The position numbers and the translations under genes are program-made. From a virus: DNA of 34,663 nucleotides. Below the pieces are notes generated by a model. That model was not told the origin of the DNA. It did no database searches and worked only from the letters and a program-made list of their open reading frames with translations. This document shows positions 497-580 of the stretch, in pieces; positions within the stretch are counted from its first letter, which is position 1; the number at the start of each line of letters is the position of its first letter. The stretch lies in UHGV virus genome UHGV-0173140; one strand, written 5' to 3'.

Positions 497-580
497 CTAA
501 TACACGTTCTGTATTAGCTGCAACTCAAAATCATGAAACCTATGTAAAACCATGTGTAGCTAATACAGAACGTGTATTAG
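497..580. promoter_or_regulatory. pair of 21-bp palindromic operator-like sites (ctaatacacgttctgtattag at 497-517; exact reverse complement at 560-580)
   Basis: Each site has 8-bp arms ctaataca/tgtattag around a 5-bp asymmetric centre; centres are 63 bp apart; the second site abuts the UP element of the promoter at 588-629. Confidence 0.5.

Follow-up and report, generated by a model that had tools for sequence, protein, structure and literature searches.

Clusters of short sites read by a dedicated protein are familiar from phage replication origins, and the comparisons that bear on the DNA described here are lambda ori with its O protein, the oriL and oriR of SPP1 with G38P, and the ori and crr of P4. 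At lambda ori the sites lie on one side of the AT-rich element, and lambdoid O proteins are built from an N-terminal DNA-binding part, a linker and a conserved part. Repeats of another kind, the pacL and pacR of SPP1 and the pac of P1, are recognised by terminase and flank a central region. An HTH protein with inverted-repeat sites is, for its part, an ordinary and well-known kind of control element, and palindromes are also the substrate of hairpin-mediated template switching, a known mutational mechanism.

The DNA analysed here, UHGV virus genome UHGV-0173140 (34,663 nucleotides, hereafter the window), is by its sequence a 9NA-like (Nonanavirus/Sashavirus) E. coli siphophage, closest to PDP46, AVIO78A and Bas82 KarinMuster (~96% identical). 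The main paper on the group, Zeng et al. 2019 (J Virol 93:e00848-19), may have covered the repeats described below or a pac site near them; the other papers examined on these phages mention neither the repeats nor the position of pac nor gp84. We describe a family of palindromic sites at two control regions of this genome, its variation among relatives, and the protein that appears to read it.

Results

A pair of palindromes in the head-gene control region

The sequence CTAATACACGTTCTGTATTAG stands at 497-517 on the + strand of the window, and its exact reverse complement stands at 560-580. The initial annotation had described this arrangement as two 21-bp palindromes with asymmetric 5-bp centres, 63 bp apart, and a sequence search agrees with each of these points; with up to three mismatches allowed, the 21-mer matches twice in the window and never in 100 dinucleotide shuffles. 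Both 21-mers have the form 8-5-8, a palindrome with arms CTAATACA and TGTATTAG around an asymmetric centre that reads CGTTC in site 1 and GAACG in site 2, and the 63 bp that separate the two centres in the window amount to six helical turns. Site 1, CTAATACA-CGTTC-TGTATTAG (497-517), carries the one-sided flank CTGCA, which extends the feature to 497-522, and it is found in all seven aligned relatives among the E. coli phages. Site 2 reads TGTAG-CTAATACA-GAACG-TGTATTAG-CTGTA over 555-585, with its core at 560-580. The inverted repeat is longer than first noted, with 26-nt arms (497-522 and 555-580) that are 96% complementary, with one mismatch, and the segment 490-590 folded as single-stranded DNA forms a 26-bp stem (-25.4 kcal/mol, z = -10.2).

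Both sites lie inside a 445-bp divergent intergenic region, from which the head genes run leftward from 231 and a small-gene cassette runs rightward from 676. Copies of the promoter box TTAAAATAATTCTTGACG flank this region on either side. The window has 13 copies of this box, some on each strand; it is evidently the sigma-70 promoter, with an UP-like element, that the phage uses as standard. The copy at 588-629 (+ strand) consists of the UP-like TTTAAAATAATTC, the -35 hexamer TTGACG, a 17-nt spacer and the -10 hexamer TATCTT, and it reads into the cassette that starts at 676; the divergent copy at 277-302 (- strand) reads, by the annotation of relatives, into the head-gene operon, whose first gene starts at 231. 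From the end of site 2 it is 7 bp to TTTAAAATAATTCTTGACG, which comprises the A/T-rich UP-like part and the -35 hexamer of the rightward promoter. Site 2 is placed at about -57 to -77 of this promoter, adjoining the UP-like element and not covering the -35/-10 core, and this is the only one of the 13 box copies with family sites upstream. With a weak candidate promoter, TAAACA-18-TATGAT (464-493), site 1 would fall at about +1, but this promoter is conserved in neither 9NA nor Carvaje.

On the left of the pair lies an AT-rich element of 88 bp (384-471, + strand), in which three tandem TCTATGTTN 9-mers are followed by phased A-tracts.

The small-terminase locus

When the family motif TARTRCA-N5-TGYAYTA is sought with at most two mismatches, 11 sites are found in the window, and all 11 lie in two divergent intergenic loci (starts at 497 and 560, and at 19341, 19370, 19506, 19659, 19680, 19712, 19736, 19767 and 19806). 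At the same threshold, mononucleotide shuffles of the whole 34.7 kb yield a mean of 2.0 sites. In the complete Bas82 genome, 11 of 12 regex matches fall in the same two loci. The scan of the window adds nine family sites to the pair at 497-580, all of them at 19341-19826. Two of the nine had been recognised earlier as related half-sites: the one at 19341 is real, and the other starts at 19506 and not, as had been given, at 19508.

The second locus is a 610-bp divergent region between the small terminase gene terS (18631-19266, - strand; 211 aa, PHROG 51, Shine-Dalgarno sequence GGGAGA) and a gene at 19878-20612 (+ strand), which encodes a 244-aa protein resembling gp84 of 9NA. The true start of terS is at 19266, which gives the same 211 aa as in 9NA gp1 and Sasha gp01, and the main array starts 75 bp upstream of it. 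Nearest to terS are two sites, tacag-CTAATACACTGTTAGTATTAA (19341-19361) and tacag-TTAATGCACAACATGCACTAA (19370-19390); a third, tacag-CTAATACACTATATGCACTAT (19506-19526), lies directly left of a second copy of the AT-rich element (19547-19634, + strand), which is 90% identical to the copy at 384-471; and six more (19659-19826; starts at 19659, 19680, 19712, 19736, 19767 and 19806) are arrayed upstream of 19878-20612. The terS-locus sites stand three and six on either side of 19547-19634, and the head-locus pair stands to the right of 384-471. No consensus promoter box is found in 19267-19877, and the search for promoters of terS and of the gp84-like gene returned only weak, non-conserved consensus matches.

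Elements of the same AT-rich kind accompany the sites at both loci in 9NA and in the Klebsiella relatives. All six window copies of ATCTATG fall within the two loci. TerS could possibly act at these ATCTATG/9-mer repeats, which do not depend on site type and are a motif different from the palindromes.

The sites of the head locus contain TAATACA and those of the terS locus TAATGCA. We treat both as one family because A and G toggle at the R position in orthologous sites of the window, Bas82 and Sasha. The sites carry a conserved flank on one side (TRCAG or TAGTTWCAG), and most members have a fixed mismatch between their arms, TAATGCA facing TGCACTA. Phylogenetic footprinting of the terS-locus array did not separate sites from spacers among relatives that are ~94% identical.

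Site types among relatives and the protein that follows them

In distant relatives the layout of AT-rich element, two sites and promoter is kept at both loci and the sequence of the sites is altered. The window's motif, TARTRCA-N5-TGYAYTA (type A), is that of the E. coli phages. Type B, TAACA-N5-TGTTA, is found in 9NA, with two head and seven terS-locus sites; type C, CTTACCAG (for example CTTACCA-GTT-TGGTAAG), in the Klebsiella phages Carvaje, VLCpiS10a and phi_KPN_H2, and all six exact copies in the Carvaje genome lie in the two loci. Both of these types are palindromic too. Type D, CTATSATAG, occurs at the terS locus of the metagenomic contig L022; type E, ATAACCA-AAT-TGGTT, at the terS locus of the metagenomic L027, together with a further HTH variant; and type F, ATAACCAGATNTGTA, is found in SP069. 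The Shine-Dalgarno sequences of terS and of the gp84-like gene are each abutted or overlapped by sites in 9NA, L023 and Carvaje; in four lineages, 0-11 bp separate site 2 from the UP-like element. The sites look like the targets of a two-fold-symmetric, and presumably dimeric, sequence-specific DNA-binding protein, and to this extent the earlier description of the pair as operators of a dimeric regulator fits them.

The N-terminal ~60 residues of the gp84-like protein partition exactly by site type: over the N-terminal 58 aa, homologues of the protein encoded at 19878-20612 show 81% identity or more when they share a site type and no more than 48% when they do not. In L022, only the N-terminal domain and the sites have been exchanged; the AT-rich element and the remainder of the protein resemble those of the window. 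SP069 carries two site types (B and F), each at both loci, and two HTH genes, one for a stand-alone 69-aa domain of the 9NA type and one for a full-length protein with another N-terminus. Because the sequence of the sites always changes together with the N-terminal domain of this protein, we assign the palindromes to it, and in our judgement they are very probably the cognate sites of the HTH protein encoded at 19878-20612.

This gene was among three candidate HTH genes named at the outset, and the other two do not pass the same comparison. NinH (3334-3528) is 59% identical between the window and Sasha despite the same array and was not found in Carvaje, and the 90-aa protein encoded at 22473-22745 is missing from 9NA and Carvaje and also from Sasha, whose array is the same. 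A ParB-like protein (24056-24823) was set aside as well, with an HTH that is nearly invariant across types and a grouping of L023 (type B) with Carvaje (type C). So was the first gene downstream of the pair (676-1059): BDX09P1 and PJ16 keep the sites but have other downstream genes.

The position of the main array, directly upstream of terS, raises the alternative that the sites are recognised by the small terminase as a pac-type packaging site, of which the head pair would be a secondary or vestigial copy. Pac-directed headful packaging is stated for relatives in a passage of PMC8954984 that cites Zeng et al. 2019. Several GenBank records of relatives start or end within this intergenic region, and terS, the array and the gp84-like gene form a 94%-identical module that moves together between Sasha and the E. 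coli phages. Against this, the N-terminal HTH of TerS does not co-vary with site type, and TerS was rejected as the reader: over its residues 1-65, identity is 72-95% for pairs of different site type and 78-100% for pairs of the same type, so that the ranges overlap. Specifically, 9NA (type B) shares 95% identity there, and the same recognition helix, with phi_KPN_H2 (type C), whereas 9NA and L026, both of type B, are 78% identical, and the window-like TerS helix AAATTA is also present in L023 and L026 (type B) and L027 (type E). The head locus, moreover, is 19 kb from terS. We consider packaging sites a quite improbable explanation.

Centre flips and spacing

The exact mirror image of the two sites is limited to one lineage, comprising the window, PDP46 and IMG/VR L030, in which site 1 has the centre CGTTC and site 2 GAACG. 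The centres of sites 1 and 2 are both CGTTC in AVIO78A, 536P12 and PJ16; they are GATTC and CGTTC in Bas82, CGTTC and CATTC in BDX09P1, and GAACG and CGTTC in IMG/VR L031. The centre of site 2 in the window (568-572) is inverted relative to most relatives, and in five close relatives the two centres share their orientation, which speaks against the mirror image as a design feature of the pair. The Klebsiella group shows the same behaviour at the 3-bp centre of site 2, which is GTT in Carvaje and phi_KPN_H2 and AAC in VLCpiS10a.

Site 2 of the window corresponds to the product of one template switch, by which TTAGTACA-CGTTC becomes the reverse complement of CGTTC-TGTATTAG, that is, CTAATACA-GAACG. 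An imperfect left arm was corrected to perfect complementarity alongside the flip of the centre. All four combinations of left-arm state and centre state of site 2 occur among relatives, which requires at least two events. We read the centre flips as the signature that palindrome- or hairpin-mediated template switching is expected to leave. The sites survive these flips, which also shows that, as far as the aligned genomes indicate, the direction in which the centre points makes no functional difference, in keeping with a symmetric dimer.

The spacing of the sites varies as well. From site 1 to site 2 it is 63 bp in the window, 69 in 9NA, 70 in Sasha and 60 in Carvaje, and from the centre of site 2 to the -35 hexamer it is 31 bp in the window, 25 in 9NA and 33 in Carvaje. 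Neither helical phasing nor, in consequence, a specific looping geometry is conserved. The initial annotation had suggested that the operator pair could loop the DNA between its sites; with spacings of 60-70 bp across relatives, nothing points specifically to looping, and this part of the suggestion is not supported.

The stem into which 490-590 folds (26 bp, z = -10.2), and the centre flips, which show that hairpins form at some frequency during replication, might suggest that structure alone matters here, whether as a cruciform or long hairpin, as an RNA hairpin or terminator, or as the ends of an invertible segment. We regard this as highly improbable. A long inverted repeat is present only in genomes with one flipped centre; in five relatives the sites are direct repeats. 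The stems are AT-rich and lack a U-tract; a scan of 150-750 for intrinsic terminators gave no terminator-like site, and an Rfam search of the window gave no match. The fixed arm mismatch in most family members argues for reading by a protein and not for pairing. As for an invertible segment bounded by inverted repeats, which we rejected, the repeats are direct in five relatives, and inversion of the segment between the sites (32-42 bp) is never seen in relatives, the 32-bp spacer being invariant.

Mismatched head sites in Sasha-type phages

Sasha, Sergei and Solent depart from the rule. Their terS-array-gp84 module is 94% identical to that of the window and of type A, but their head-locus sites are of type F/C and mismatched to their own type A protein. 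A tblastn search of Sasha for a second gp84-like paralogue that would serve the type F head sites found none. The head locus of SP069 is Sasha-like up to and including site 1 and 9NA-like from site 2 on. On the simplest reading of these sequences, the terS-gp84 module would have been recently replaced in the Sasha lineage. Since Sasha-type phages are viable with mismatched head sites, the head pair must be either dispensable or read by something else there, and we infer that it is probably dispensable for viability.

That Sasha, Sergei and Solent are viable although their head sites and their HTH differ in type could also mean that the head pair is a functionless duplicate left over from the terS-locus control region, with its AT-rich element and two sites, inherited by common descent and made uniform through gene conversion or template switching, and the frequent palindrome-mediated rearrangement of the centres and arms of the sites is in keeping with such a history. 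We find it improbable that the pair is no more than this. The layout is kept in lineages that are ~70% identical here, with ~125-130 bp from the AT-rich element to the -35 hexamer, and in four lineages (E. coli, 9NA, Klebsiella and SP069) head sites and protein have changed type together. Such joint change calls for selection or for repeated co-conversion.

The gp84-like protein

The protein encoded at 19878-20612 is annotated as hypothetical everywhere (PHROG 25538, without assigned function; 9NA gp84, Sasha gp81 and Bas82_0094). Its N-terminal 60 aa form a domain with a confident XRE/Cro-type HTH fold, and the top structural matches of this domain are all transcription regulators or antitoxins. 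The whole protein has no match among Pfam and PDB sequences; hits to PF11123 and DHH_CID were disregarded, being weak, below threshold and confined to 16-47 residues. Neither sequence nor profile comparison revealed similarity to a known initiator, helicase loader or replisome organiser. The family has 12 representatives among 1.84 billion clusters, all of them from this phage group or short HTH-only proteins, and an exhaustive profile search gave no informative remote relatives beyond these 12; for the central and C-terminal parts, homologues are limited to this phage group.

Beyond the HTH, a conserved central domain is joined to a conserved acidic tail by a PVARVEA repeat of variable number, and the central domain is duplicated in the Klebsiella phages. 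An hhalign comparison of the N-terminal HTH with the central domain, which hinted at an internal duplication with a second HTH-like unit, was not significant (probability 13%, E 0.002, 26 columns). The full-length AlphaFold model is poor (pLDDT 61), and a Foldseek search with it gave no significant result. The gene is monocistronic, convergent with the replication operon and outside that operon.

Discussion

As the reading we favour, though one that falls a little short of probable, we propose that the sites serve the protein encoded at 19878-20612 in the control of transcription. The N-terminal XRE/Cro HTH of this protein would bind TARTRCA-N5-TGYAYTA as a two-fold-symmetric dimer. The main array of nine sites, which fills the 610-bp control region, would provide autoregulation of the 19878-20612 gene and set the expression of terS, and the head pair at 497-580 would be its satellite. 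This pair sits between an AT-rich element and the consensus promoter 588-629, in the divergent control region of the head genes and the small-gene cassette, and occupation of sites 1 and 2 is expected to modulate the adjacent promoter. Because site 2 touches the UP-like element, a protein bound there might occlude the C-terminal domain of the RNA polymerase alpha subunit or make contact with it.

Several observations argue for such a role: the XRE/Cro fold, the location of the array upstream of the protein's own gene, the stand-alone HTH of SP069, the abutment of sites on both flanking Shine-Dalgarno sequences in types B and C, and the position of site 2 within 0-11 bp of the UP-like element. 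Others argue against it. The 12 other promoter copies have no such sites, site 2 is off the promoter core, and the distances vary. Furthermore, each cluster of sites is accompanied by an AT-rich element with tandem 9-mers, which an origin needs and an operator does not.

It is this pairing of family sites with an ~88-bp AT-rich element at both loci, repeated in 9NA and the Klebsiella relatives, that suggests a role in replication instead, with the gp84-like protein as an origin-binding initiator and the sites as iterons beside an AT-rich unwinding element. The terS-locus array would then be the main origin and the head pair a second origin or a cis-acting enhancer. Six or seven of the array sites are spaced at 21-39 bp on one side of the AT-rich element, as at lambda ori, and the protein, with its type-specific N-terminal DNA-binding domain, its repeat linker of variable length, and its conserved body and acidic tail, is organised like lambdoid O proteins. 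The head-locus element lies between divergent strong promoters, which would favour the transcriptional activation of an origin; the two-locus layout is like that of SPP1 oriL and oriR; and a dispensable secondary origin would account for the survival of Sasha with mismatched head-locus sites.

On the other hand, the HTH fold and its top structural matches are those of regulators or antitoxins and not of initiators, the protein has no similarity to initiators, helicase loaders or replisome organisers, and its gene is not part of the replication operon. No origin signal can be read from GC skew, which tracks the orientation of the genes. The stand-alone 69-aa HTH of SP069, with its own sites, better suits a simple repressor, and the abutment of sites on the Shine-Dalgarno sequences of both flanking genes would be unnecessary for an origin. 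Overall, we think a replication role rather unlikely, even though iterons at an origin and operators would suit the anatomy about equally well. To the same limited degree we entertain its bolder form, in which the gp84-like proteins would be an unrecognised family of initiators, or initiator-regulators, whose exchangeable Cro-like HTH marks a bipartite origin, made up of a main iteron array next to terS and a second element of AT-rich DNA and iterons in the control region of the head genes; no fewer than five or six initiator-origin specificities, each excluding the others, would then circulate among virulent 9NA-like phages that are otherwise near-identical.

Whichever role applies, the assignment of the sites gives a hypothetical family (PHROG 25538) a predicted function, sequence-specific DNA binding, together with a precise set of targets. 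It also singles out two control regions, one of them governing the small terminase, as the only ones in 9NA-like genomes that amount to more than copies of the consensus promoter. As operators, the sites would offer a first handle on temporal regulation in these virulent phages of biocontrol and therapy; as iterons, they would locate the origins. The exchangeable modules of HTH and sites, types A-F, constitute a natural specificity-swap series for the study of protein-DNA recognition, and in the repeated flips of the centre nature supplies a clean case of mutation by palindrome-driven template switching.

How, then, does this locus compare with known systems? The flips match quasipalindrome template switching, or hairpin-loop inversion, in that the centre of a palindrome (here 5 or 3 bp) is replaced by its own reverse complement; this process explains the origin of the mirror image and not what the sites do. 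With SPP1 pacL/pacR and P1 pac, the terS locus shares clusters of short repeats around an AT-rich or bent region upstream of terS, in phages with pac-type headful packaging, whereas here the DNA-binding domain of TerS does not co-vary with the sites and a second cluster lies 19 kb away. The likeness to lambda O with ori and to SPP1 G38P with oriL and oriR is more extensive: several dyad-symmetric sites of ~20 bp by an AT-rich region, a type-specific N-terminal domain that co-varies with the sites, a flexible linker and a conserved C-terminal part, and, as with SPP1 oriR, two far-apart loci of which one lies among late genes. Unlike in those systems, there is no similarity of sequence or fold, the sites are outside the gene, and the gene is outside the replication operon. 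Finally, with phage Cro/CI, Aca and other XRE-family repressors (N15 Cro, Xfaso Cro, Aca2/Aca7) the locus shares an HTH protein with inverted-repeat sites. In contrast to these, the protein here is 244 aa long, with a large conserved body and tail, and belongs to a virulent phage, and its sites number 9-10 over 600 bp plus a distant pair, carry a flank on one side only and, in the case of the pair, stand off the promoter core.

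Inverted centres and an additional inverted pair

The 5-bp centres of the palindromic sites are not fixed in orientation. The centre of site 2, the second 21-bp palindrome of the head locus (centre at 568-572), is inverted in the window, in PDP46 and in the IMG/VR sequence L030. In a further IMG/VR sequence, L031, the inverted centre is that of site 1. The Klebsiella phages carry a 3-bp centre, GTT/AAC, that stands in opposite orientations in L019 and in L016 and L021. Among the relatives, all four combinations of arm and centre states are found at site 2, and at least two events are therefore required. 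Judged from these sequences, the repeated inversion of palindrome centres looks like the outcome of hairpin-mediated template switching.

Sasha also carries an inverted pair, TAACCAGTTATGTA at 19974 (minus strand) and TGACCAGTTATGTA at 20032 (plus strand), 58 bp apart and lying between gp37 and gp38, which makes this a third intergenic region. The pair is similar to Sasha's orphan head-locus sites.

Other elements of the head and terS loci

An 88-bp AT-rich repeat is present at 384-471 and again at 19547-19634; the copies are 90% identical and carry three tandem 9-mers (TCTATGTTN) together with phased A-tracts. All six window copies of the heptamer ATCTATG fall within the head and terS loci (plus strand at 477, 485, 19557 and 19640; minus strand at 19455 and 19710). 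The heptamer does not depend on site type, that is, on which palindrome sequence a relative carries, and it also lies beside the palindromes of 9NA and of the Klebsiella relatives. This motif might be read by TerS, by a host factor or by gp84 through its conserved domain.

A near-identical promoter box, TTAAAATAATTCTTGAC(G/A)(G/A)ATT(A/G)CA, occurs 13 times in the window with varied -10 regions: at 302 (minus strand), 589, 4485, 6254, 8476, 14034, 15971, 17585, 18073, 25108 (minus), 26652 (minus), 31930 and 31993. Head, replication and small-gene units are all predicted to be transcribed from such boxes. None of the copies falls in 19267-19877, the intergenic region from which terS and the gp84-like gene diverge. 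Directly upstream of the leftward head promoter lies a hairpin, GGGAAGT-ATGCG-ACTCCC (315-332), nested in GTATAG...CTATAC (303-337).

In a small gene at the window's left edge, a variable-number 21-bp tandem repeat (1-55) encodes a proline/valine-rich linker, (VEPVTTA)n; this gene is annotated as DUF723 in PDP46 and is found at this position only in the E. coli group. The gene at 1075-1458 is called a 'recombination directionality factor' by PHROG and in Bas82, with the Pfam family Phage_VG64. This label appears doubtful, because the product begins MKKLTLCALLTTTLTAC, a lipoprotein signal with a lipobox.

The terS start and the gp84-like gene among relatives

The start of terS is most likely the ATG at 19266, with the Shine-Dalgarno sequence GGGAGA, giving a protein of 211 aa, the same as 9NA gp1 and Sasha gp01. 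The alternative, a 250-aa ORF from 19383 as annotated in Bas82, would take in two predicted binding sites. Lying 30-55 bp upstream of terS, the block TTAGTTTCCCACAGATACCCACGGGTTG (19292-19319) is kept in 9NA, L023, L026, L027 and partly Carvaje, regardless of site type. Read on the terS strand, it includes GGGTATCTG, a sequence similar to the surroundings of the -10 element in the consensus promoters. The block could serve as the promoter of terS or as a signal for packaging.

Within the gp84-like gene, a variable-number 21-bp tandem repeat (20433-20492) encodes a proline/valine-rich linker, (PVARVEA)n, with two copies in the window, three in Bas82 and about 14 in Sasha. In SP069 (KC139651) and L025, a full-length gp84-like gene is directly preceded by a stand-alone 69-aa ORF for a 9NA-type HTH. 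The N-terminus of the full-length protein differs from this HTH, and cognate site types for both are present. The small ORF would be either what is left after the N-terminal domain was replaced or a second regulator, of the Cro-like kind. In the type B relative L026, an inserted extra gene of 88 aa (5489-5755) separates the site array from the gp84-like gene, and the array still stands at the head (5' end) of the transcription unit.
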